From positions 10,223,939 through 10,287,938 of the forward strand of contig NC_057749.1 of assembly GCF_004010195.1 (NCBI RefSeq): 64,000 bases of DNA. Reading direction: 5' to 3'. This DNA is from Chiloscyllium plagiosum. Lineage: Eukaryota. Of the stretch, positions 6,265-42,799 are shown one piece after another. The position numbers were made by a program, and so were the translations under genes. Positions within the stretch are counted from its first letter, which is position 1. Every line of letters begins with the position of its first letter. Under the pieces are notes generated by a model. That model was not told the DNA's origin. It searched no databases and worked only from the letters and a program-made list of their open reading frames with translations.

Positions 6265-6443
6265 ATATGTGTCAGGATCGATTGGAGAAGGCAAAATGCC
6301 TGGGGGCCACTGTTGTCTTGAAGGTCGATAAATGTACATGTCCTATGGAACTGGCCCAGAAGGTGAAGAACTCTCTATGTGCCATGCCAGACATATGCCT
6401 TGAATGCACTGGCTCTGATACCTGTACCCAGGCTGGTGTCTAT
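6265..6443 (+). CDS. SORD: Sorbitol dehydrogenase-like, internal coding exon (equivalent to human exon 7)
   Basis: Polypyrimidine-TCAG acceptor and TAT|GTAAGT donor. Encodes (D)MCQDRLEKAKCLGATVVLKVDKCTCPMELAQKVKNSLCAMPDICLECTGSDTCTQAGVY, matching the SORD pattern D....RL.KAK..GA...ECTG....QAG.Y. Earlier exons lie upstream of the window. Confidence 0.93.
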
Positions 6444-10850: not shown

Positions 10851-10972
10851 GCTGTCAAACCTGGTGGAATGGTCGTATTGGTTGGCATGGGACTGGCTAC
10901 AGCAAATGTTCCTGTAACACACGCGACAGTCCGAGAAGTGGATATTCGGGGTACCTTTAGATATACAAACAC
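10851..10972 (+). CDS. SORD: Sorbitol dehydrogenase-like, penultimate coding exon
   Basis: TTTTCACAG acceptor, AC|GTAAGC donor, 122 bp, in phase with both neighbouring exons. Encodes AVKPGGMVVLVGMGLATANVPVTHATVREVDIRGTFRYTNT with the SORD GG..VLVG and REVDI.G.FRY motifs. Confidence 0.95.
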
Positions 10973-17419: not shown

Positions 17420-18055
17420 CAGATTCCACCTCCAAACGGACCCCACCACCAGGGATATATTTCCCTCCCCTCCCCTATCAGTGTTCCGAAAAGACCACTC
17501 CCTCCGTGACTCCCTCGTCAGGTCCACACCCCCCACCAACCCAACCTCCACTCCCGGCACCTTCCCCTGCAACCGCAAGAAATGCAAAACTTGCGCCCAC
17601 ACCTCCCCCCTTACTTCCCTCCAAGGCCCCAAGGGATCCTTCCATATCCGCCACAANNNNNNNNNNNNNNNNNNNNNNNNNNNNNNNNNNNNNNNNNNNN
17701 NNNNNNNNNNNNNNNNNNNNNNNNNNNNNNNNNNNNNNNNNNNNNNNNNNNNNNNNNNNNNNNNNNNNNNNNNNNNNNNNNNNNNNNNNNNNNNNNNNNN
17801 NNNNNNNNNNNNNNNNNNNNNNNNNNNNNNNNNNNNNNNNNNNNNNNNNNNNNNNNNNNNNNNNNNNNNNNNNNNNNNNNNNNNNNNNNNNNNNNNNNNN
17901 NNNNNNNNNNNNNNNNNNNNNNNNNNNNNNNNNNNNAAGGGCTCATGCCCGAAACGTCGATTCTCCTGCTCCTTGGATGCTGCCTGACCTGCTGCGCTTT
18001 TCCATCAACACATTTTCAGCTCTGATCTCCAGCATCTGCAGTCCTCACTTTCTCC
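17420..18055 (+). mobile_element. Penelope-like element 3' part spanning an assembly gap
   Basis: Encodes FRKDHSLRDSLVRS...PCNRKKCKTC (Cys motif preceding the GIY-YIG endonuclease). A family B terminal repeat follows the gap. Confidence 0.82.
17657..17936. other. Assembly gap (280 N)
   Basis: Run of N characters. Confidence 1.
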
Positions 18056-18465: not shown

Positions 18466-20831
18466 TAGTAGTGAAAGAGCTGCAGGGGAGGATAGTTGAA
18501 CCTAAACATCCATCTCATAGCTGTAGTGTTCCAGGGAAAGTGAAACATGTTCCACAAAAAGGAAAGGAACATCCCCCACCCCAGGCAGTATTAGTGGTGG
18601 CAGCCCAATAAATGTTCGGGACCCACCCCACAAACAGGAAGGGAACAACCCCCACCCCAGGTACCATTAGTGGTGGCAGCCATTAAAACCAGGTGCCCAT
18701 AGGAGTCTGAGGAACAATACCTCAAACAGTTCAGTCGGCTTGGTGTTGAGTTAAATGAGAACGAGGTACAACATGCATGTGCAGGCTCCCTCCAGGTGAC
18801 AGCCCTCAGATTACAGCCAACCAGCCTTTGAGAAGGGTGTCACTGGCTGGGCCCAGCATTTATTGCCCATCCCTTATTGCCCTTGAGAAGGTGGTGGTGA
18901 ACAGCCATCTTGAGCCACTAATTTGTACAGCACTTCTCTTCAGTTCCCACTGGTAATAATTAACCAGGGTCAGAAGGGAGAACTCCCCTGCTCTTTGTAG
19001 TTAGAGATTCTGGGGACCTTTTAAATTGGAACTCAGTTGGAGGCGCAGTTTAATGGCTTGACTGACAGGTATCATTGTAGCAGTGCCTTGGCGCTGCAGG
19101 CAGAGGAAGCCAAGATTTTGTGTTCAGGTCTCTAGGGTGGGAGGTCATTCCTCACACTTTATACAACAATTGTATTTGGTGGCACAGTGATTGCGGTTCC
19201 TAACCACACACTTTGCAGTGCCTGTGTTAATGATATAGCTCATTACATTTACGATGGGGTGAGTTTATTGTTGGAATGCCTATCTGCTCAAACTTTCTCC
19301 CAAATTCACACAACTTCTACCAGGGTCTCCTGGAGCCAGCTGTTCCAGAACTGTGGAGCATAGCGTTCCCTCGTATCTGGGGGTAAAATCAGACAAGCCC
19401 CTGTTTTACAGCACTAGCCAGGTCGTATAATAAAGATAAACAAAGAAACATCAAGGGATACAATGTTTCATTTCCTCCTCCGACTCCATTTTGATTAAGC
19501 GCCTTCCCACTCTCCCTACCCCCCCTGTGTCATGTTTGATGGGTTTATATTGCCTGTAATGAGCTTTGCTTGTAAACTTCTAATTGGGGACATGAGTGGG
19601 AGTTAAAAGGAAAAATGCAAAAAGGCACAGTGATTCTGGTGGTGGGACAGTCATTCATTTGCGTGTGATAACACTTCTAGGTAGAAAAGGAACAGAAGAA
19701 AAATAGAAAATAGGAGCAGGAGTAGGCCGCTCAGCCTGCTGCACTATTCAATATGACCATGGCTGATCATCCAACTCAGTCCCCATTCCTGCTCTCTCCC
19801 CATACCCCTTAACCCCTTTAGCCCTAAGAACTGTATCTAACCACTTCTTGAAAATATTCCATGGTTTTGCCCCAGTCGCTTTCTGTGGTAGAGAATTCCA
19901 CAGGTTCCCTCCTCTCTAGGTGAGGAAACTTCTCATCTTGGTCCACCCCGTATCCTTAGACAGTGACCCCTTGGTTCTGGGCTCTTTGGTCATTGGGAAC
20001 ATCCATACTGCAACTAGTCTTGTTCGCATTTAATGGTTTCAATAAAATCCACCCTCACTCTTCTCCTAAGGTGAGGTGTCCAACATCAATGTTAATGAAT
20101 GGGTAAGTGGATGAATAAGTGAATGGGGCAGGGCAGATAGCCAGGGGTGGTACATTGATAAGTGGGTAGCGTCGGTGAGCAGTAGATGGATTGGGTGACA
20201 AGTGGGTGAGGTGATAAGTGGCTGAGGTGGCAAGTGGGTAAAGTGGCAGTTTAGTGAAGGGGCAAGCAGGTGAGGTGGCAGCTGGGTCGATTGGTAGGTG
20301 GAGATGGTGGTAGGTGAATGAGATGGTATGAGGTAGTGAATTGGGTGCCCAAGAGGCCATCAGGTGGGGTCAGGGGGACAAACAACAATCAGATACCAGA
20401 GGAGGTGGTCAATGGTCAGGTGTATTTAGAGAGAGCCAGAGGATAGTCCATAAGTCTGGTCGGGTTGGCTATCGGTGTGAGTGTTTGATAAGAGATATGA
20501 TAGAATCCAAGAATTAGGCTGTGATTTTTTTATATATATCCTGACATTTCCTGGGTAATTATCTGAGACAGTATGTTATAGCTGTCCAAAACCCAAGTTG
20601 TAACTCCAAATCGAGAACTCCAAATCGACGCTCCAAACAGAACGTCCCATGGAAAACAGATTCAGCCATCGGAAGTTGAAATTTCCTGGGGCAAATCCTG
20701 ACATGCATTCCAGAGACTGGGAGATTTGTGTGTCATGACCAAGCAGGCAGAGGTGTTGGCTGTTGGGGGGAGTGGGGTGGTGGTGAGCAATGTGATCCGA
20801 TAGTTAACCTCTCTCCCTCCTGCTGTTCCAG

Positions 20832-21078
20832 GTGGCATACTGCAATCGCCCTGCTAGCTTCAAAGAAGGTGGATGTCAAACCTCTGATTACGCATCGTTT
20901 CGGACTGGAGCAGGCCCAGGAAGGATTCGAATGCGTGAAGAAGGGAGCTGGAATCAAAGTGGTCATCAATTGTGAACAGCAGCAGCAGCAGTGCCCATCG
21001 CTGTGCCCACAGAACCAGTGTGGCCAACAACAATCACAATGCCAAACAAGACAGTGTCCCCAGCACAGCTTTTTCTGA
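20832..21078 (+). CDS. SORD: Sorbitol dehydrogenase-like, last coding exon with Gln/Cys-rich extension
   Basis: TTCCAG acceptor, phase 2. Encodes WHTAIALLASKKVDVKPLITHRFGLEQAQEGFECVKKGAGIKVVINC, then EQQQQQCPSLCPQNQCGQQQSQCQTRQCPQHSFF and TGA. Confidence 0.93.
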
Positions 21079-21149
21079 TTTGTTTTGTTTGTGCAATTAC
21101 AGTTTTGACCACTGTAAAAGTAATGTCACCCAGCCAATTGACCTTCTGC

Positions 21150-21155
21150 AATAAA
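21150..21155 (+). terminator. Probable SORD polyadenylation signal
   Basis: AATAAA about 70 nt after the stop codon; a second AATAAA lies at 21258-21263. Confidence 0.55.
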
Positions 21156-30678: not shown

Positions 30679-32591
30679 TACTTATTGGTTGTATTAGAAC
30701 AGTAAGCAATTGATTGCTTGTAAAGTACTTTAGAATCTGCTGAAATAGTGAAAGGTGCTATACAAATGCACAGCTTTCTTTCATCTCCTCAAACCTGACT
30801 GAGGTTGCAAACTTTTATTTTCCAATATTAATACAGTAACACAGTGCCATGTTACTTTGGTAATTAATAAAATTGACTTGAGATATTGAAATAGAAATTA
30901 CCTTCTCAATTCCAGGCATCTTCAGTCTTAGGTATAAACAACAATGTCCTTGTTTTTGAAGCCATTTTTAATTTTCTAGCATTAAAAGATTTGGAAACAA
31001 TTAATAAACATCCAAAACAGCTTCAATTCATTATCTGTGACTTAACCTAAAGAGACACCCAGACTGTTTTACAATCCTATGGAGTGATATTTCACAACAC
31101 TTGCTGAAAGCCAGGAATAATGTAAGCCACTAACATTTTTCAAGTTCCCCTTAAATATAGAGAAACCCCCCAGAGTGGCTTACACAGCCATGAGACTGAA
31201 GAAGGCTTCATTTCCAAAAGTAGCAAAAAAAATTGGGCAAAGTCTTGGGTTTTCATGGATGCTTTAGAGCAGCAGTTTCCAAATGTTTTGGGCCTGTGTT
31301 AGTCCTTATTCATTTTACCAAGTTGATGCATACCCCTTAGAGACATGTTCTTTTTCAACCACATTTTGTAAATCCTACCCCGTCCAGAATCACACACTCA
31401 GCATCCCCACCCCTAGTCCTCCTGTCAGTTATTTGCCTCACCTTCTAACCCCCCCCACCCCAGTTGACTCATTCACTCAACAATCCCTCCTCCTAAACCT
31501 TCTCTTCCCTATTCACTCTGTTGTGTCTTTGAGAGACAGCTCCAGTAGCAGCCAACTTTGATCAGAGAGCCATCTCTCTCCACCTCCATACTTGGACTAT
31601 TTCTGTAATGGAGCACCATCTGATGTACAGTCATTCGCTCTCCCACTGCTTCTCCACTGTTTCACACTGAGAATGGTGCGTGTATGGAATGAGCTACCAG
31701 AGGAAGTGGTGGAGACTAGTACAAGGACAGCATTTAAAAGGCATCTGGATGGGTACATGAATAGGAAGGGTTTAGAGAGATATGTACCAAATGTTGGCAA
31801 ATAGGACGAGATTAATTTAGGATATCTGGTCAGCAGGGACAACTTAGACCTGTTTCTAAATTGTACAACTCTATGACTCAATGTCCTTGTCTGAGCATCC
31901 CCAACCTGTGGAGTAGAGAATTCCAAGGAATCCTAACTCTTTACTCCAAAGATTCATCACTACTGATGATTCCTCTTCCTTTGCTCTTTCACCTAGCCCA
32001 CAATGCTGGTCGATGTCTTCATATCAATCCTCTTCTCTTTTTGGATTTGGTGATTGGTAAACAGCTGCAGTTGAAATGCGCTTTCTGCCATCAACTCTCT
32101 GGATTTACCTGGACTGGGAATTGGTACCAATATATGGAGTCTTGCCCGCACCAGTAACTAGGTTATTTTGTAGCCAGCGAGGCCTGGTGAGAGACTTGAA
32201 CCCAGGTCTTTCAGGATCAGGGGCAGGACAATACCACCAACCCAGCCACTCCAGTACCCACTTGAGGAAATTACAAATTAGTGGGGATCTTTTTGGCATT
32301 TCCAATGCAAGGAGTTTATAAACCTCCTAAGTTGTGGGTAATATAATCCTCTGCTGTTTTTAAATCATACTGAGCAGTGATCTATTCCAGGTACCTTAGA
32401 AACTCTGTGGAACAATAATCCCTCTATAGTAACACTTCATCTATTCTGAATATCCTGACGTTAAATAGAACACACTTCACAGCATTACTTAAGGAGTCAT
32501 TAAGCAGTAGTGAGTGATTTCCCAAAATGTAGTACTTATAAGACAGAAAGAGGATATTGATAGAATTGTGAGCTATAGTTTAAAAACTTAC

Positions 32592-32764
32592 CTTTAAATA
32601 TACAGCATCTCCACGATCATCAGTAAAGTTATTGCTAATTAATCCAATGCTCATTTGATCATCATCATCCTCCTCTCCACTTAGCATGAAGAATGTCTTC
32701 AGTTTCTCTGGGATGCAGTGATCCATAATGATTACAATTACTCCAAGAATGAAGCACAGCAACG
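32592..32764 (-). CDS. DUOXA: DUOXA coding exon 6
   Basis: TCTAG acceptor. Encodes ALLCFILGVIVIIMDHCIPEKLKTFFMLSGEEDDDDQMSIGLISNNFTDDRGDAVYLK and ends at AAG|GTAAGT. If unspliced it reads on to VSF-stop at 32580. Confidence 0.9.
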
Positions 32765-34559
32765 CTAGATTAGAAAGGAAAGGGGTCTGTTATTTGTTGC
32801 ATGTTCCAAACCAGCTGTTTGTGGGAATTGGGAATTTTGATGACCCAATTTTATCAACCGCTCTATGGTGCACGCGAGGAATAAAAGCTGAAATTCGAAC
32901 TCTGAGATCTAATTCATCATGTTCCCATCCAATTCACCCATTTCCAGTATTGGCATGGGCACCCTAAATGACGTCTCCGCCTTCCTACCAGCCAATCAAT
33001 CCAGCTGGCTGATGGTCAGAGTGGAAAGTGGGCCAGGGCTTCACACTCTTAGTCTTGCCTCCTATTACTGGATTCCCTTTGTCCCTTCTGTCAATATTAA
33101 AGTTCCTGTTCAAAAGGTCCCAAGGCTCAATATACAGCAAGTTTAGAGAACCACAGTTGCCCAACTCTTGTCAATGCAATAACCCAAGTTCTCAACCTTT
33201 AGCCACTTAGTATAGAAAGTACCACGGCTCATCCGTTCCCAAAATTGATGGAAATTGATCAGCATACCACTCCTTCCTGGGAGTCAGTTTCAGATGTCAC
33301 ATAGGGACAGTAGATCAGTCTTCCTTCACAGTCAGGGAAAACATGTGTAGACAGATCTCAAGGGGCTGTCAGACAGATAAGGGCAACTTGCCTAAGCATT
33401 TTCTTTTCCTTTGCACAGCAGGTTGCTGCAATCTGGAGGGCACTGACCAAAAAGGACGGTGAAAGCAGTTTCAGTCATAACGTTCAAAAATGAGTTGGAT
33501 AAATGCTCGAAAAATGAAACGCTGGCAGGACAAAGAGTAGGGAGGGGAAACTCTGTCAAAGAGTTGATTAAGCATGAGGGGTCAGGTGGGCATGTTGTCA
33601 TTTTTCTGTGATGGGAGGTTGGAATACAAATTACCCAATAGAAGGGAATAAAATTGTCTTGGGGTGATGATACTTCCAACTGTCGTCAATCTGACTCTGC
33701 TCTTTTTGTAAATGTTGGTTGGACTTTTCAACCGTTTGGAAGAAAATTCAACATTTCATTCAATAGCCTGGCCACGTCCCAATATTTCAGCAAAATGAAA
33801 ACCAAACATATGCTGCCAAGATGAAAGAACTGAATGGGTTTTTGTGATCCAAAGCATTGAGAGTTAACCACATTGTGTGAAATTTGAAGCTAGTTTACAT
33901 CCAAACCATGAAAAGGTGGTTGATTCTGATCTTTGAAGAACATCAATGAACCTCTCAGCTTTTTGCAAGGAAAGAAAATTGGCTATGTTCATTCTTTTTT
34001 CTTTCTAGTGGTAGGTTACAAATGAATGAATTTGATAATTTTATGAATCTTCTAAGCAGGAAGCTGAGATGTCAACTTGAGGCTATGCTCAAAACAACTC
34101 TGGACACCAGTTTTAGGGAGTCAGAGTGGATGACAGATAGATTTCAACAGTTGTACTACCTGTCCTCAACCTTAAACATTTCCTGCATTTGTTCCATTAA
34201 ATATAACTATTAAATATAACTTAACTCTTAACTATACTTAGCTTAAATTTAACAATTTCCTGTATTTGGTGCACTAAGCATCAAAGCATTGCAAAAATGT
34301 TTCTATGTTCATTGATTTCTTGCTGTGCCCTCGTGTCAATCAGAAAATTAAAAGGGAAGAGCCCCAGATTTTCCACCCAGTGGTTTCAGAAGATATTGGG
34401 GACATTACTTATGGTGTTTCCTGGACTCACAACATCAACAGGGCAGCCTTCACACTAGAAAATTGACAGAAGAAAATCTATCCTGATACTAATGCAAATC
34501 TCCATTTCTTTAGATCAGTACATCTTCTGTATTCTAAAAAACAGACTCACTGTGCTTAC

Positions 34560-34774
34560 CAGTTGCTAATGTCAGCCAGAAGGAGACACTGAAATTAGTC
34601 TTCAGTGTTGTTGGGCCAAACTGAATGATGCATGGCGATACATTTTGTATAGTGGCAAATGAGATGACTCCAAAGATCATGAATGCAGATGTGACCAATG
34701 CCATGTAGCCTCCGTACACAATAGTTGGCATGGAGAAGAGAATGTTAGTGATGATCCAGGCACAAAATGCCACC
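34560..34774 (-). CDS. DUOXA: DUOXA coding exon 5
   Basis: ATTAG acceptor, G|GTAAGC donor, 215 bp. Encodes VAFCAWIITNILFSMPTIVYGGYMALVT...SFWLTLAT. Confidence 0.95.
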
Positions 34775-37251
34775 CTAATCAGAAAGATCAAAAACACAAT
34801 GCTTGGTCAAAAATCTCTAAACATTCATCCCACAAATATTACTTCTGTTTGTTCAATATGATAGGAATGTAGTCAACTAGCAATCAGCTGCACTAACATC
34901 TTGGATCTCCCTTCTGACCTTATCCATATCTCATCCTAAAACCAGTTTTTCCATTGCTCAGCTATTTCTTTTAGATGCTTTAATTGAGTGAGTTGTCCAC
35001 TCTGCACAGGTAAGTGATTTTTCACAATGACACATTGTGTGCACCAAATTTCAACATCAATGTTGAAACCCCAATACCTTGTCACACAAGTATCACAATT
35101 TCGGACAAATTAGACATGCATTTCTTTGAGTGAACTGGAATAATAACAGGCCATTTGGTTCAACATAACTGGAGGGTAGGAGGTTGAGAGGCGACTTGAT
35201 AGCAGTTTATAAAATAATGAGGGCTATAGCTAGAGTTAATGATAGTTGTCTTTTCCCTCAGATAAGGGATTTCAAGACTAGAGTGAGGGGAGAATGATTT
35301 AAAAAACACACGAGGGCAAATGTTTTACACAGAGGGTAATTCACATGCAGAATGATTTTCCTGGAGGCAGTGGTGGATGTAGACAAAATTACAACATTTA
35401 AAAGACATTTCAGTGAGTACATAAACAGGACAGGTTCAGAGGAATATGGGCTAGGAGCAGGCATGTGGGACTAGTTTAGTTTGAGATTATGTTTGGCACG
35501 GACTGGTTTGACTGAAGGGTCTGTTCCGTGCTGTATGACTCTCTAAAGTAGTTAAAGGGTAAAGCTGTATTTTCTTAAAGTTTAGATCACCATTTGGTCC
35601 ATGCTGGCAGTGTTGGTTCCAGCTTCAGAGACTATTCGATCCTTTTTTTCCCCCCTTGTACTGATTAATATGTTATATTCGACAATTTAAACAACTCTCA
35701 CTTAAGTGCTGCAATTGATTCAGCTTCATTGGCTCTTTGCATTTGTACATTCCATAGTCTAATAACCCTTTGTGTGGAGAAGACACCTTCAAACCTGTCC
35801 TTTATATTTAAGTTCATGCCCTCCATTGACCAGTGGTAATAACCAATTGCCCTTAACCTTGTTTGCTCCAATATGTTCAGCTCTAGAGTCCTGGTTGAAT
35901 TACCAATGTACAGCCCTGTTCTCATTTTTGTTCATCTTGAATGAGAGCCAAATGCCTTCATACATCCTCTATAATTATGTCCTTTCTTCTTTCTAAAAAT
36001 GATGTCACAAACTGCTCACACTGTTGTTTAGTGCCAATAAACTTTCATTCATAGCTTTGCTTCAGAGTTTAATGTTCATGTTCCCTTCCTCTAGATTTTC
36101 TTTTACACTGCTCTGTATCATCTTACAGGGCTGCGGTTGCAGCTAACAGTCTCACTGCCTGTGTAGAAATTGCAACCTCTATTTTAAATTGATGGTTTGA
36201 AAACGCTTCAGTTTGTGATATTTTTATGGTGAGTTTTGAGGTGATTCCTAGGCTGTGGCCATTGCTGGTATCTTGTGCCCATTCTCAAGTTTAATGGGTC
36301 CTGAATATTACATCTCCCTCCCCTCAATCTGGCTGTCAGTGCGTACATGTCACCTTCACATTTGACTAGCGGCAGGATAGATTTTAGACAGTCTGCTCAC
36401 TCTTACTGAATTGTGGCCAATTAAGGGGCTCCCAATGCTGTTGGTCTTTTATAAGGCAAGGTATACCCTGCAAAGTGGCTCCATGTTTAAGCTGCTGGAC
36501 AAAGCAGTCAGTGTGTCCCTCTGAGCCAAGTCGAGTCCTACTGGATATAATATAACTTTCCTTTATGTGTCGTGTGGTGCAAAAGTAGTGTTCCTACCTC
36601 TGAACCAGAATGTCCAAGTTCAAGTCCCATCTGATCCAGTGTGCAGCAACACGTCTCTACAGGATGATTAAAAATAGTTCCCCTGTGAGCCAGTCTGTGT
36701 GCCCTATTGGGAGGACGGATTTTGACTTTCACTTGGACACTGGCGCCCCACAAAGGTGCTCCTTGAAAAAAGAAATCCAGTCCTCCACTGCCCCCCCAAT
36801 AACTGAATGAATTGCCAGAACCATGCACACTGCATTGCACATTTACTAACTCTCCCTTGCTCAGCTGAGGGCACTTTGCAGCCGAGAACAGATAGCAATG
36901 TATTTTGGGATATACTGGAGAGAGGTGACGGTTTCCCTTGGCATTGGCAAATGAACACTGTCATTAACAATGTGGCCCCTTGCGTGAGCATTCACTGGTG
37001 CTAATCCACAAATTGCTCAATGTACAGATTCACTTTTACTTTTTGTTCGGGTTGAATTTGAACTCATACCTTGGTTAGGAATTTAGCCCCATTGTCAATG
37101 CAGAACTGTTCCATTTGTTTTGCTTTGCAATTGCCACTGTCCTTTGATTCTGAGTCTAAACTCTGCCTGCTTGATCTTGGATGAAATTAACCCCTTCATC
37201 TTCAAATACATCAGAAATGCAATTCAAAATGCATGAATGTGTTTTGCTTAC

Positions 37252-37465
37252 CACATCATGGCTGTTGCATAATGGCCAGAGAACCTGTACTGGTCATGAA
37301 TAAGACAGGGGCTTTTGCTCTGAAACTTCTCAGCAATGTACAAAATTGGATGTGGAAGCCCTCGATTAAGCCCATTGTTATATTGCTCATCGTAATTCAT
37401 TGTAAATCTCCATAGAAAGCTCTCGTTGTAGTCTATGGTTTCATTCAGCTGGTTCTCAGGGATTC
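37252..37465 (-). CDS. DUOXA: DUOXA coding exon 4
   Basis: TTGCAG acceptor, TG|GTAAGC donor, 214 bp. Encodes GIPENQLNETIDYNESFLW...GLPHPILYIAEKF...QYRFSGHYATAMMW. Confidence 0.96.
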
Positions 37466-38409
37466 CTGCAAGGACATAGCATGGAGCACCCTCATATGTT
37501 AATTCAGTTTGCAGTCGGCCAAAACAATAATTAAATATCCAAAATAACACTTTACAATTGATGAAAATCCAAACGCTTTAAGCTGTGGCCAACCACTTGC
37601 AAGCGCATCTGTGCTGAATCACCCATTCCTGATGGTGTCCACTTCAGTGGAGCAGACTGTGAGTTAACAACATTGTAAATATATTAAAGACAAGCTCCTG
37701 TGTATGGCAGTGAAATTATAAGTACATTATTCTACAGAGTATTTGCCACTACAGATCCTAGCAAATGAGATGAGGCATTAAGATCGGTAACAAAAGAAAT
37801 TTTCATAAATGCAGCAGTGTTAGCCCATACCTTTGACAATGGACGATGAATAATGGAATCCTAAACCAAAGTATTACTTTCTCATCACATTTATTTTTCT
37901 TTTATTTAACAGTGTGACCCCATCATATATTATATCAGACTGTGTATTTATTTTTATCTACTGGTTTACAGCGAGAACGTACAGTTTGTATAATCCGCAA
38001 GGGCAGATAAGTTAAATTGCTTTGGCAGAGGTCTGATACAAATTGTTGGGTTGAATGTGCACTTGGTTCGCAAGTAAGTTCCTTGTTCACTGTTCATGCA
38101 CAAACCATTGGCGCATTTAGCTAAGCACTGACCTATTTCCAAAGGGATCTGCTCCTGCTCTTTTCTGATGCAACACCTAACACCAATTACCAATCTCTAC
38201 CTGTTGAACCATTGAGTTGTTGCCAATTTAGAATAAAAGTCAATTATTGGTTTGTGTGATTAAGAAGTAGTGTCCCTACCTTGAGCCAGGATGCTTGGGC
38301 TCAAAGTCCCACCTGCTCCAGAGGTGTATAATTACATGTCTGAAAGAGGTTGGTTAGGGAAATAGATTACATATTTTAAAAAAAATATTGCCACAAGAAA
38401 ATGACTTAC

Positions 38410-38544
38410 CTCTCAGAGTCACATTAATTCCTGCCAGTCCAATGTTGAGTCCCACTTCTGCAGTGATTGCCTCATTACTGAAAGCCTTGTAAATTGTGCT
38501 CACCCTGGCAAATCCAGCTGCCCAGTCACCAGTAAAGTTCACCA
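38410..38544 (-). CDS. DUOXA: DUOXA coding exon 3
   Basis: CTGTAG acceptor, G|GTAAGT donor, 135 bp. Encodes VNFTGDWAAGFARVSTIYKAFSNEAITAEVGLNIGLAGINVTLR (YKAFS and G.N.TL motifs). Confidence 0.95.
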
Positions 38545-41158
38545 CTACAGAATGAATTATGATTCAGTTAATGATTCTGATATTATCATGGCCAAGTGTC
38601 TGATTTCCTTAATTAGTTATTAAAAAGTCATTTTGTGCTTTAGACGCCACTCTGAGGTAAAGTCAGACTTTTGTAGATAATATTCACAATTCATCCAGAG
38701 AATTATGAAGGTTGTACTTTGCACTAAGAATTAGCACAGCTCTGAAGTTTAATGACTGAGAAACGAATGTGGGTAACATGAGACTTTAAAATGAGAAGTT
38801 GCACCTTTCCAATTTGGCATGAGCAAATATAATTGGCGTATGCCTTTGTGTGGGGCTGACTTGATTCCCCATCACTGACAAAGTTATACCTTCTATAATA
38901 AGAAATGCAAACTGAAAATGTTGGAAATACTCAGAGGGTCAGGAAGCAACTGCAGTGAGTGAAACAAACAAGCTAGTGCAGTAGGAGGAAGTGAGGACTG
39001 CAGATGCTGGAGATCAGAGTCAAACAGTGTGGCGCTGGAAAAGCACAGCAGGTCAGGCAGCATCCGAGAAACAGGAGAGTTGATGTTTCAAGCATTAGCC
39101 TTTCATCATTCCTGAAGATTTGACACAGATTGTTGGATTGAGTGTGCATCTGGCGTACTTATGAAAAGATATTGACTCCCTGTGTCTGCAGGAGCCTTCC
39201 CATTCTCAAAGTGGTCTACCCAGATTGCTATGTGATATTGATTATTGAGAGGGACATTTTTACAATCCTGCATATTCCAAACTTTAGCAATGTAGATTGT
39301 GGGCAGAAATCTTCTCTGGACAAGTAAAAAGATATTAAAAACCCAGCTCAAACAGTTACACACTATATTATTTGCATTCCATGTGCTTTAAGCCTGAAAG
39401 CCATTGGATCAGAGAACTTCCAAAACCCAGGCTGGCCCAAATACGTTATCTGTGCATTTCATCAATTATAGAATGATTACAGCACCGAAGGAGGCTATTT
39501 AGTCCATCAGGACTGTGTCAGCTCCTTTCATGGTAAATAGATGTGGGTACAATTACAACATTTAAAAGACATTGAGAAACGTATATGACTAGGAAGGGTT
39601 GGGAGGGATATGGACCAGGAGCAGGCAGGTGAGAATAGTTTAGTTTGAGATTATGGTCGGCATGGATTGGTTGGACCGAAGGGTACGTTTCTGTGCTGAT
39701 TAACTCTATAACACCAGAGATGTTTGAAATGAGATGTCCTTTTCTTTTCCCTTCATTCAATGCCTGTAGTTGTCCCCTGGCTCAATGTGACCCTGAACCG
39801 AGTGGCTTACTAAAACTGAATGTAATTAACCAAATCAACACGTTGGAAAATATTGGGTTTTGTGATGCAGGTGCAATGCTGTAAAACAGCATTTAAAACT
39901 ATCAACATAAATTTTCCAACTTCTTTCAGTTCCAGAAAAGAATCAGAGTGGACTCCAAACAATAACTCGATTTCTCTCTTTCCACTGAGGCTGCTAGGCC
40001 AGCTCAAATTCTCCAGCACTTGTCTCTTTTTATTTCAGTTTGGTCAAACAGAACAAGGGAGAACCAATGAAACTTAGAAAGGGAATTTCAGAATGTGTAG
40101 TCAGTAAGACCATAGCAAAGCTCAAGAGACCTGAAATGAAGGCGCCTAGTGATCTTGAAAAATTGTGGACTAGATTATAGAGGGCGGTGGCAGGTGGAGT
40201 AGAGTGGAAAAGGGAAGGTGTTGGGTCAAAGGGAGAGCTATGCACTGCAGGAGGAGAAAGGGGTATTACAAAGTGCTCAAAGATAACTGCAGTCTTTGGG
40301 CACTCATCAGGAATTGGGTGCTTCCAGGTTTTTCAGAATACAATCGGTGGATTTTGGAAATCATTGAAACAGAGTTCTGACTAAGGGACACTGATTTCTC
40401 TCCACAGATGCTGTCCTTCTTGCTGAGCTTTTCCAGCAACTTGTTCTTGTTTCTGGTTTCCAGCATCCACTGTTCTTTCGGGTTTTATTTAAACAGGGTT
40501 AAATGTTGGCTTTCAGGTTAGGCCGGGCAAGCGCCAAAGACAGTCCTTGCTGGGTGCCTCACCCTTACACAGCCGGACTTTTCAAAGTCCAGGAAGTTGT
40601 AGCTTCAAGAGAGCCACAGGAAGAGATTGGAGATACTTGAGCCACATTCTCATTCCCGGGCTGTGGGGAAGCAGTGGACCACTCTCCCCTTAGGGCAGGA
40701 TACAGATTAAATTTACTAAGTCGTTCTGTTTTAATGCGCGTTTTGTCACTTTAAGAGCTGTTTCTAAAGTGCGACTGTCCTATAACGCTGGGCTGCACAA
40801 GAACTTTATATGGTTTACGGTCAACAATCCTCTGTCTGCCTAACCCCTTCATCTCTCTCTCCCTCTCTGGGCTCTTTCTCCACCGATCTCCCATCTCTCC
40901 CCCTCCATACCCTACAAATACCACTTTATCCTAACTGGATCAGCTCTGATGAAGACTAACCAAAATCTAAACGTTAACACTGCTTTCTCTGCCCACAGAT
41001 ATTACCAGATCTGCTGATTTTCACCAGTAATTTCTACGCGTTTTCAGATTAAGTTACATCTTAGCATACTCATTAGAAAACATAACATTGTGTCTCTGTT
41101 GTGAAATTTACAACACGATATCATTTAATATATTTTTTAAAAAGTAAATTGCACATAC

Positions 41159-41216
41159 CTACAATAACAGCTCCAACAAAAAGGCTTACAATAATTCTGC
41201 AGAAGGAGTAAACTCT
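41159..41216 (-). CDS. DUOXA: DUOXA coding exon 2
   Basis: TTTCAG acceptor, G|GTATGT donor, 58 bp. Encodes RVYSFCRIIVSLFVGAVIV. Confidence 0.92.
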
Positions 41217-41280
41217 CTGAAAATATAAATCAAACAGGCAACATTTTAAACAAACGAATAAACATATTGTTCACTAAGAA

Positions 41281-41490
41281 TTGGAGATGCCGGTGGTGGA
41301 CAAAGTTAAAAATCACACAACACCAGGTTCTAGTGCAGCAGGTTTATTCGGAAGCACTAGCTTTCGAAGCGCTGCCCCTTTTAAGTGGTTATATCCCATA
41401 ACCAGCTGATGAAGGAGCAGTGCCTCGAAAGCTAGTGCTTCCGAATAAACCTGTTGGACCATAGCCTGGTGTTGTGTGATTTATAACTTT
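41281..41490. mobile_element. Fold-back Penelope-derived short element (family A) in DUOXA intron
   Basis: About 80-bp inverted arms; CTGATGA...GAAAGCTAGTG at 41406-41437. Confidence 0.8.
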
Positions 41491-41832
41491 ATTCATTCGT
41501 TTCATATTGCGTGTTTCGTTAGACTCAATGTTAAAAACCGCCTCCAAATTTCGTGAATTTGTCAACGTTGACCGACAGGAACGAATTGACTCGGAATCAA
41601 CTCCCTGCAGTGAAAATGGGAACCACGACTTTGAAGCGGAAAAATAATTTCAGCGCACAACCCCCAGTCCCCACACCCCCACAACCCTCTCTCCCTTTCT
41701 GTTCTGGGGGTCGAAAGAAGGGTGTCTGGCGTTTGAAATGTCACTATAAGATCGAAAGCGACAAACTGCAGTGGATAATGAGACCAATTCTGCGTCAGCA
41801 AAGACAGCGGGGAAAAAAAAACCAAGGCTTAC

Positions 41833-41979
41833 CCCTTTCCCTCTGATTCCCGGGAGGATAATGAGCAGCGTTAGGGTAAACACCAGGAATACCAGGATAA
41901 CCACGAGTAAGGTGATGGCAAAAATGAACGCTGTTCTGTCGTGGGGATAGAATGGTCGAATTCCATTGAAGAGAGTCAT
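41833..41979 (-). CDS. DUOXA: Dual oxidase maturation factor, first coding exon (exon acceptor at 42009)
   Basis: Encodes MTLFNGIRPFYPHDRTAFIFAITLLVVILVFLVFTLTLLIILPGIRGKG (PFYP and ILPGIRG motifs). 147 coding nt, GTAAGC donor, TCTCTGCAG acceptor 30 nt upstream of the ATG. Confidence 0.95.
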
Positions 41980-42799
41980 AATTGGCGATTGCACACGATC
42001 CTGTGTCAACTGCAGAGAGATTGAGAGACAAAATAGTTACGGGGTAATCAACTAAGAGCAGACTGCAAAACCCTCATGGTCATTTTTTCGCACAAAAAAT
42101 AAATTGCACATTCGGTTACATACATCCGAATTCAAATCCCAAACTGTTTCCGTTAAAAAAAATTGGGAATTTCGGATTAGTATAGTTCCACAGCGCATTT
42201 GACCCATCGCGCACCGTACTAGCCCAGGTCAATCCGCTCCATTCTAAGTCTACATCAGAGTGATGCTGGAAAAGCACAGCATCCCGAAGAGCAAAAGCCC
42301 TTAATCTACCCACTCCATTCCAGAATCCTTGCCCCTTCCCCACCCCGTCCTTGCAGCCCCGTGAATGACCACACACAATGTTGATCCACAACCACCTATT
42401 AAAGGAGCGCCACTCCGAAAGCTAGTGCTTCCAAGTCAACCTGTCCTGGTGTTGTGTGATTTTTAACTTCAGACGCAATGTATTCGCTTGTCCCCGTTCG
42501 TCTGAGGAATTTCCCGAGGCTTGGCGTTTCGTTTTTTCTCCCCAAGGGAAGCGCATCAGAAGTCACAACCTCAGCTCCTGAAGTGAACACTATCTGGAAA
42601 ACACTATCTCTTTCTCCTTCGACGTTGCCAGACCTTGCAGCACTTCTGTCTGTCTGTGTGTGTCTCCTGTTTCTGCTAAATTCAGCATCTGCAAACAACT
42701 TGCTTCTGAATTAGATTCTAAAGTTTAACTGGTATCAGTGGTCCCTTAGAACTAACCAAATTCCTATTTTCTCTACATCGTGTAAAATAAACGCTCTAA

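Follow-up and report, generated by a model that had tools for sequence, protein, structure and literature searches.

A sorbitol dehydrogenase (SORD) gene of the bamboo shark Chiloscyllium plagiosum continues past the cysteine that closes the enzyme fold into a tail dominated by glutamine and cysteine. The exon is almost certainly the last one of an ancient SORD paralogue found throughout the elasmobranchs, here termed T1, that arose by tandem duplication at the ancestral SORD–DUOXA–DUOX locus. By every sequence test T1 is a member of the SORD family, one in which the short C-terminus has been changed. Positions given without a contig refer to the window, which is the whole stretch of 64,000 nucleotides analysed here.

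The terminal exon of T1 and its tail

The tail translates as CEQQQQQCPSLCPQNQCGQQQSQCQTRQCPQHSFF, 35 residues followed by a TGA stop, and its reading frame is the continuation of the last SORD coding exon; no separate exon encodes it. Because tail and SORD C-terminus lie in one exon, no ordinary splicing event can remove the tail. The T1 features located in the window are as follows.

6265..6443, forward strand: T1 coding exon, residues ~199–259, MCQDRLEKAKCLGAT...QAGVY, with borders ttgtcag/AT and TAT/gtaagt; located by tblastn with the C. punctatum model (P0003), exact join to the C. plagiosum model (P0187)
10851..10972, forward strand: T1 coding exon, AVKPGG...FRYTNT, with borders cacag/GCT and CAC/gtaagc; tblastn match of 100%
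20832..21078, forward strand: T1 terminal coding exon, comprising the conserved SORD C-terminus WHTAIALLASKKVDVKPLITHRF...IKVVINC, the tail and TGA; acceptor ag at 20830–20831 after the pyrimidine tract ctctccctcctgctgttcc
20971..21078, forward strand: Cys/Gln-rich tail, from the closing Cys346 to FF, with Cys346, 353, 357, 362, 369 and 374 and with His377
20977..20991, forward strand: pure tract of five CAG codons, within the Gln run that starts at about residue 347 (codon list and alignments)
21150..21155, forward strand: AATAAA, consensus polyadenylation signal, 72 nt downstream of the stop (sequence match only)
21258, forward strand: second AATAAA (sequence match only)

The exon at 6265–6443 is the first T1 exon within the window, the earlier exons being placed upstream of it. 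All three window exons have GT–AG borders, and when joined they reproduce, letter for letter, residues 200–380 of P0187, a 380 amino acid RefSeq model from C. plagiosum annotated as "sorbitol dehydrogenase-like". The corresponding C. punctatum model differs from it at two residues. A run of 280 N inside the last T1 intron (17657–17936) may be an assembly gap.

The 14 glutamines of the tail are specified by nine CAG and five CAA codons, and its six cysteines by three TGT and three TGC codons. The preliminary description had reported a tail of this length, composition and mixed codon usage, and the translation and codon list agree with it in each respect. Its statement on where the mammalian enzyme ends is likewise accurate, since human SORD (1pl6, 356 amino acids) stops seven residues past the equivalent cysteine, with KCDPSDQ aligned. 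T1 thus has 35 residues past the closing cysteine where the human enzyme has seven and the two normal bamboo-shark copies have one to five.

Conservation of the tail and history of the tandem array

A search with the terminal exon matched nine proteins among 24 candidates. Eight of the nine carry the full-length tail; the ninth is a truncated model from Scyliorhinus torazame that departs from the family sequence before the tail is reached. Six more tailed sequences were obtained from cluster look-ups. The tail is accordingly present in 11 named species (two of Chiloscyllium, Hemiscyllium, Stegostoma, Rhincodon, Carcharodon, Cetorhinus, Mustelus, Hypanus and two of Mobula), which span the Orectolobiformes, Lamniformes, Carcharhiniformes and Myliobatiformes.

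When 11 T1 orthologues of sharks and rays are aligned, 24 of the 35 tail residues do not vary, among them all six cysteines, His377 and the final FF. Every one of the 11 tails finishes with QCPQH(S/N)FF, and the spacing C-x3-C-x4-C-x6-C-x4-C-x2-H is fixed throughout. Apart from one extra unit on a single contig (see below), variation in length is confined to the Gln run, which ranges among the orthologues from QQ (preceded by Ala) to Q9. Between bamboo shark and Carcharodon the tail is identical at 33 of 35 positions and the enzyme body at 281 of 317; for bamboo shark and Hypanus the corresponding values are 29/36 and 254/319. A 35-codon open run is not improbable in itself, and it is the invariance of 24 positions that places the tail beyond chance. 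Taken together, this conservation and a tail identity as high as that of the body rule out a sequencing error, a missed stop or neutral slippage. The tail is therefore a real, conserved coding feature rather than a CAG slippage tract, as had been proposed from the codon usage. Of the outcomes named beforehand as speaking against it, none was found: the tail is intact in relatives, it recurs in independent records, and no intron separates it from the fold.

Further support for the gene model comes from a 205 amino acid frame (P0008) that runs over at least four exons into the tail on a contig of 916 nt. As the frame crosses at least four exons, the contig represents a spliced transcript or derives from one, and this spliced frame carries the tail. 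The encoded protein, a ray-like T1, has one additional CPTL unit (CPSLCPTLCPPQNQC...), indicating that the xCP unit can duplicate.

T1 was not among the matches for Heptranchias, Heterodontus, Leucoraja, Amblyraja, Narcine and Pristiophorus, for all of which other SORD copies were matched. T1 may be dispensable in some lineages, or merely unannotated there.

The C. plagiosum genome contains four SORD copies in tandem on one contig, together with one further exon interrupted by stops. The order along the array is T2 (a second tailed paralogue), normal copy B (ending KCDPDN), the lone stop-bearing exon, T1, DUOXA (reverse strand), DUOX (forward strand) and an inverted normal copy (ending KCD). 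The two normal copies stop five and one codons, respectively, past the closing cysteine. The remaining elements of the locus map as follows.

C40:10075852-10094674 of the same genome, forward strand: T2 paralogue, with its last exon at L009:573-875
C40:10150674-10150850 of the same genome (L012:678-836): lone SORD-like exon between normal copy B and T1, residues ~84–142, with in-frame stops
32583..42036 of the window, reverse strand: DUOXA, five exons matching the DuoxA profile
from 56863 of the window, forward strand: DUOX, first An_peroxidase exon, head to head with DUOXA

The lone exon probably represents what is left, as a pseudogene, of one more duplicate. The placement of DUOXA and DUOX in the window identifies T1 as the SORD copy directly beside this pair, an arrangement that the preliminary description had noted and that the profile matches bear out. 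Human SORD also neighbours DUOXA and DUOX. That T1 might be a paralogue and not the housekeeping SORD, also suggested at that stage, is supported: it is one of the four tandem copies.

A maximum-likelihood tree was calculated from 35 enzyme bodies with their tails removed, omitting four mis-modelled or partial sequences (P0002, P0004, P0008 and P0010). T1 and T2 are each recovered as a clade (support 100/100 and 100/99, respectively), and they group together with one row from Callorhinchus (95/96), separately from the normal-ended chondrichthyan copies. All chondrichthyan SORD copies form one clade (93/90), and T1 lies inside the vertebrate SORD clade. The T1 stem has a length of 0.31, and the shark-to-ray path within T1 amounts to 0.28–0.32 versus 0.37–0.41 for the normal copies; a long stem followed by short paths points to a burst of change with strong constraint afterwards. 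Rays and sharks are sister groups within T1, so that T1 is older than the divergence of sharks and rays. This split is dated to ~270–300 million years ago.

The Callorhinchus row is a UniRef model from C. milii (P0092) that leaves the family sequence after ...IKVI and ends ...QPCNKRCELPHCKTFVC, with four cysteines and no Gln run. This end could be a third type of tail or a mis-modelled last exon. As the row sits on a long branch and its end is perhaps a modelling error, an origin of the group before the divergence of chimaeras is offered only as a possibility.

Enzyme body, cysteine content and tail structure

The body of T1 is that of a complete medium-chain dehydrogenase (MDR). Pfam returns PF08240 (ADH_N, GroES-like; E 1.9e-21) and PF00107 (ADH_zinc_N, Rossmann; E 2.1e-22) for the C. 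plagiosum model, and the structural matches are human SORD (1pl6, E 2.3e-133, aligned over 4–351) and the sheep enzyme (3qe3, E 4.3e-132). The residues that do not vary in an alignment of 76 SORDs, a set that includes both T1 and T2 and whose register was checked against 1pl6, are all present in T1; among these residues are C40, H65, E66, E151, G175, G177, G180 and D199. The first four align with human C44, H69, E70 and E155, which we take to be the catalytic zinc ligands and a second Glu. The glycines presumably form the GxGxxG element of the NAD fold and D199 is presumably the Asp that selects NAD, these roles being carried over from the human enzyme. Since the zinc and NAD residues are kept, T1 is probably still a polyol dehydrogenase. 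The substrate loop reads FMAGFPP in T1 versus FFCATPP in the normal copies, and with this alteration the specificity of T1 may differ from the sorbitol-to-fructose reaction. The N-terminus is of the ordinary cytosolic SORD type and has no added leader.

In comparison to vertebrate SORD (EC 1.1.1.14; 1pl6/1pl8), then, T1 has the same two-domain MDR fold as judged by sequence, the same Pfam domains and zinc and NAD residues, and the same DUOXA/DUOX neighbourhood; it differs in its altered substrate loop, in its membership of a clade limited to chondrichthyans, and in its cysteine content. T1 proteins contain 26–31 cysteines (6.7–8.2%) and T2 proteins 18–25, compared with 9–14 in normal copies from sharks to mammals. 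The cysteine count of T1 is thus roughly twice the normal one. This enrichment, which the preliminary description did not mention, covers the whole T1 protein and not the tail alone; nor did that description mention the sister paralogue with its different Cys/Gln tail or the strict conservation of the T1 tail by position. At 13 body positions T1 has a cysteine that is found rarely or never in normal copies, and four of these derived cysteines (141, 210, 224 and 237) are common to T2. The seven full-length T1 sequences have 25 core cysteines in common, and the carpet sharks have gained up to six more. Residues 184–270, in the Rossmann domain, contain CxxC and CxC pairs, and this stretch hardly differs between sharks and rays. 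Within T1 the cysteine columns are no better conserved than the others (25/31 versus 262/346; Fisher p 0.66).

The AlphaFold2 model of T1 has a mean pLDDT of 83 over the body. Residues 350–380 are without secondary structure at a pLDDT of 33–35, the tail alignment being shallow. The T2 tail of C. plagiosum is CQQQCQQLLQQCQQQCQQ, and the protein ends ...LEECQKQCQQLLQQCQQQCQQMQKEQKEHCGRTAGH; it is composed of a Glu/Lys/Gln linker followed by the 11-residue units CQKQCQQLLQQ and CQQQCQQMQKE. Two such units, CQQQCQQLLQQ and CQQQCQQLQKE, are likewise present in the T2 of Heterodontus (P0015), for which AlphaFold2 predicts a disordered Gln linker and then a 29-residue helix (residues 363–391, pLDDT 63–79). 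The helix cysteines 366, 370, 377 and 381 are spaced i, i+4, i+11 and i+15 and lie on one helix face, a layout that in this predicted model would suit bridging between helices. Proteins of the T2 type were found in seven named species, among sharks, skates, rays and torpedoes. T1 and T2 thus belong to one clade, their tails both begin with C-E-(E/Q)-poly-Gln, and their cysteines align at four tail columns; the T2 tail is predicted to be a long helix, whereas the T1 tail contains proline and has no predicted structure.

Pfam returns nothing above the cut-off for either tail (best E 3.8 for the T1 tail), and repeats in the T1 tail are limited to three xCP units. In its own genome the T1 tail matches itself only, at E up to 10, and the T2 tail matches itself and two weak sites (E 0.08 and 1.2); there is no second copy of either tail in the genome, and no sign of a donor gene. 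The best protein atlas matches to the T1 tail (0.75–0.77) are unnamed clusters of 20–23 amino acids and give no lead. Cys- or Gln-rich ends occur in none of 149 cluster representatives of the wider SORD family, a count in which all vertebrate SORDs stand as one representative and which shows no more than that tails of this kind are uncommon across the family at large. In a further set of 190 proteins, Cys- or Gln-rich ends are limited to 14 T1 rows, seven T2 rows, the row from Callorhinchus and a single fragment that is unrelated.

An origin of the T1 tail by frameshift into an old 3′ untranslated region is not supported. Positions 21068–21082 of the window match, over 14 nt (CTTTTTCTGAT.TG), a site ~40 nt downstream of the copy B stop, in the 3′ untranslated region (L010), and copy B read in the +1 frame would give ...SCFFF and a stop. 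However, 13 of 632 other pieces of the window score equally, and the match is probably due to chance.

Possible roles of the thiol-rich tails

The T1 tail can be described as a poly-Gln spacer of variable length followed by a fixed Cys/Pro framework that ends QCQT(R/K)QCPQH(S/N)FF. The gene model, its paralogy and conservation, the cysteine enrichment and the retained catalytic residues are established from sequence; beyond these, we infer that tail and extra body thiols could together serve to tether or assemble the enzyme. Bridges formed by disulfides or metal, and possibly Gln–Lys links, would fix the active enzyme in place, and the anchoring site would be a specialised, thiol-cross-linked cell structure. 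As a whole, and with this mechanism included, the proposal of an active enzyme that its thiols tether or assemble within a specialised cell is a tentative one, to which we give somewhat less than an even chance. The absence of a defined module from the AlphaFold2 model of the tail is a point against a tether, as are the cysteine columns of T1, which are no better conserved than the rest, and the six genera for which T1 was not matched. Moreover, the last 12 residues of the tail are strictly conserved by position in all 11 rows, a pattern that, on sequence grounds, would suit a metal site or one for a specific ligand no less than it would suit generic cross-linking.

Anchoring extensions are known from GAPDHS and other mammalian sperm-specific metabolic isozymes, for which testis expression is documented. 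The idea common to GAPDHS and the proposed tether is that of a duplicated metabolic enzyme in which catalysis is kept and a terminal low-complexity extension fixes the protein to the cytoskeleton; the GAPDHS extension, however, is N-terminal and Pro-rich, whereas that of T1 is C-terminal and Cys/Gln-rich. Cys-rich protamines are reported from sharks. On account of these isozymes and protamines, sperm would be the best single guess for the site of T1, one that rests on analogy and that we regard as doubtful. In the parts seen of a report on the catshark semen proteome (PMC11083954), the protein lists for sperm and seminal plasma, which are short and count against this site, contain neither 'sorbitol' nor 'SORD', nor A0A401NS62, which is the truncated S. 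torazame T1 fragment whose model is without the tail. The sperm table and Table S2 of that report, as far as seen, do include an MDR N-terminal fragment, A0A401QCT0 (scyTo_0023980). As the gene models of S. torazame are fragmented, this entry could represent a SORD paralogue of which only the N-terminal half was modelled.

A related proposal extends the tether to both paralogues. T1 and T2 would form a thiol-rich pair built into a cross-linked structure, either the sperm flagellum or midpiece or another hardened tissue, while still oxidising polyols; the QCPQHSFF end of T1 would then be a docking motif. We consider this possible, though on balance improbable.

In the main rival reading, the tail, perhaps together with C198-x2-C201, C222-x-C224 and C243-x2-C246, would bind metal (Zn, Cu or Fe–S, with five Cys and a His as ligands) or act as a redox switch within the molecule, and would so regulate or stabilise the enzyme without any tethering. 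The fixed Cys5-His spacing is what would be expected of a ligand set and not of a tail driven by composition, and several CxxC and CxC pairs that T1 has gained in its Rossmann domain do not vary among T1 sequences. The MDR superfamily often has a four-Cys structural zinc site, which mammalian SORD is without, and six of the seven T2 sequences have regained a CxxC, through D98C, in the lobe of this site. However, no Pfam metal-binding family matches the tail, and AlphaFold2 gives it no fold, albeit from a shallow alignment. The variable poly-Gln and the lineage-specific gains of cysteine (from 26 to 31) look rather like selection on the number of thiols, and T2 has a quite different, helical tail at the same position. 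On this evidence a metal or redox module is unlikely.

Rather less probable is a bulk structural role, in which T1, and perhaps T2, would be a taxon-specific lens crystallin or a component of epithelial or reproductive material hardened by transglutaminase and disulfides, with catalysis secondary. Zeta-crystallin is an MDR quinone reductase, and the cytosolic, NAD-binding T1 belongs to the same superfamily; both are nucleotide-binding enzymes that were duplicated and altered in one vertebrate lineage. The cysteine content of T1 is high and still rising, the Gln run could be a transglutaminase donor, and the long stem followed by slow change fits a functional shift. To our knowledge, however, crystallins do not carry Cys/Gln tails, and all aligned catalytic and cofactor residues have been kept through the history of the clade. 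The preliminary description had likened the tail to SPRR proteins, ODF1 and SMCP. These proteins, like the keratin-associated proteins (KAPs), are small, repeat-built and fast-evolving. The likeness holds for composition and for the QC and CP dipeptides but does not extend to a Pfam family match, and the T1 tail is by comparison a short, non-repetitive, position-conserved appendage on an enzyme, its strict conservation being unlike that of SPRR- or KAP-type proteins. The word 'dehydrogenase' does not occur in the main text, as far as seen, of a paper on the catshark eye and lens transcriptome (PMC11979771).

It is very improbable that the tail is a functionless, low-complexity read-on, produced by stop loss or frameshift and CAG slippage and merely tolerated. 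The variable length of the poly-Gln (QQ to Q9) and the predicted disorder would agree with such an origin; against it are the mixed Gln and Cys codons, the invariance of 24 of 35 positions from sharks to rays, and a tail identity that equals or exceeds that of the body. An artefact of assembly, sequencing or annotation where the frame would normally stop can be dismissed, as independent records of 11 named species and the transcript-like contig all show this tail, and as the two normal copies of the same genome stop five and one codons after the cysteine.

In the part of the literature seen on sorbitol dehydrogenase in sharks, elasmobranchs and chondrichthyans, and on lens, sperm and the bamboo shark, we found no paper on the T1 protein. 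The T1 sequences are public under the automatic label "sorbitol dehydrogenase-like". T1 is an old, undescribed, cysteine-loaded branch of the SORD family.

Vertebrate SORD has been regarded as one uniform enzyme with a housekeeping function. The array described here indicates that a major vertebrate lineage kept four or five copies, of which two are cysteine-loaded and have had different conserved Cys/Gln tails since before the split of sharks and rays. Should the tails serve to tether or assemble the enzyme, as we tentatively favour, T1 and T2 would provide an independent example of metabolic enzymes that are anchored or put to use as structural material, and would point to a special role of the polyol-to-fructose pathway in a shark tissue. 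Should the tail instead bind metal or respond to redox state, the MDR family would have acquired in it a new regulatory appendage. If T1 and T2 are built into structure, they would constitute a lineage-specific dual role as enzyme and structural protein, independent of the mammalian sperm isozymes and of the lens crystallins.
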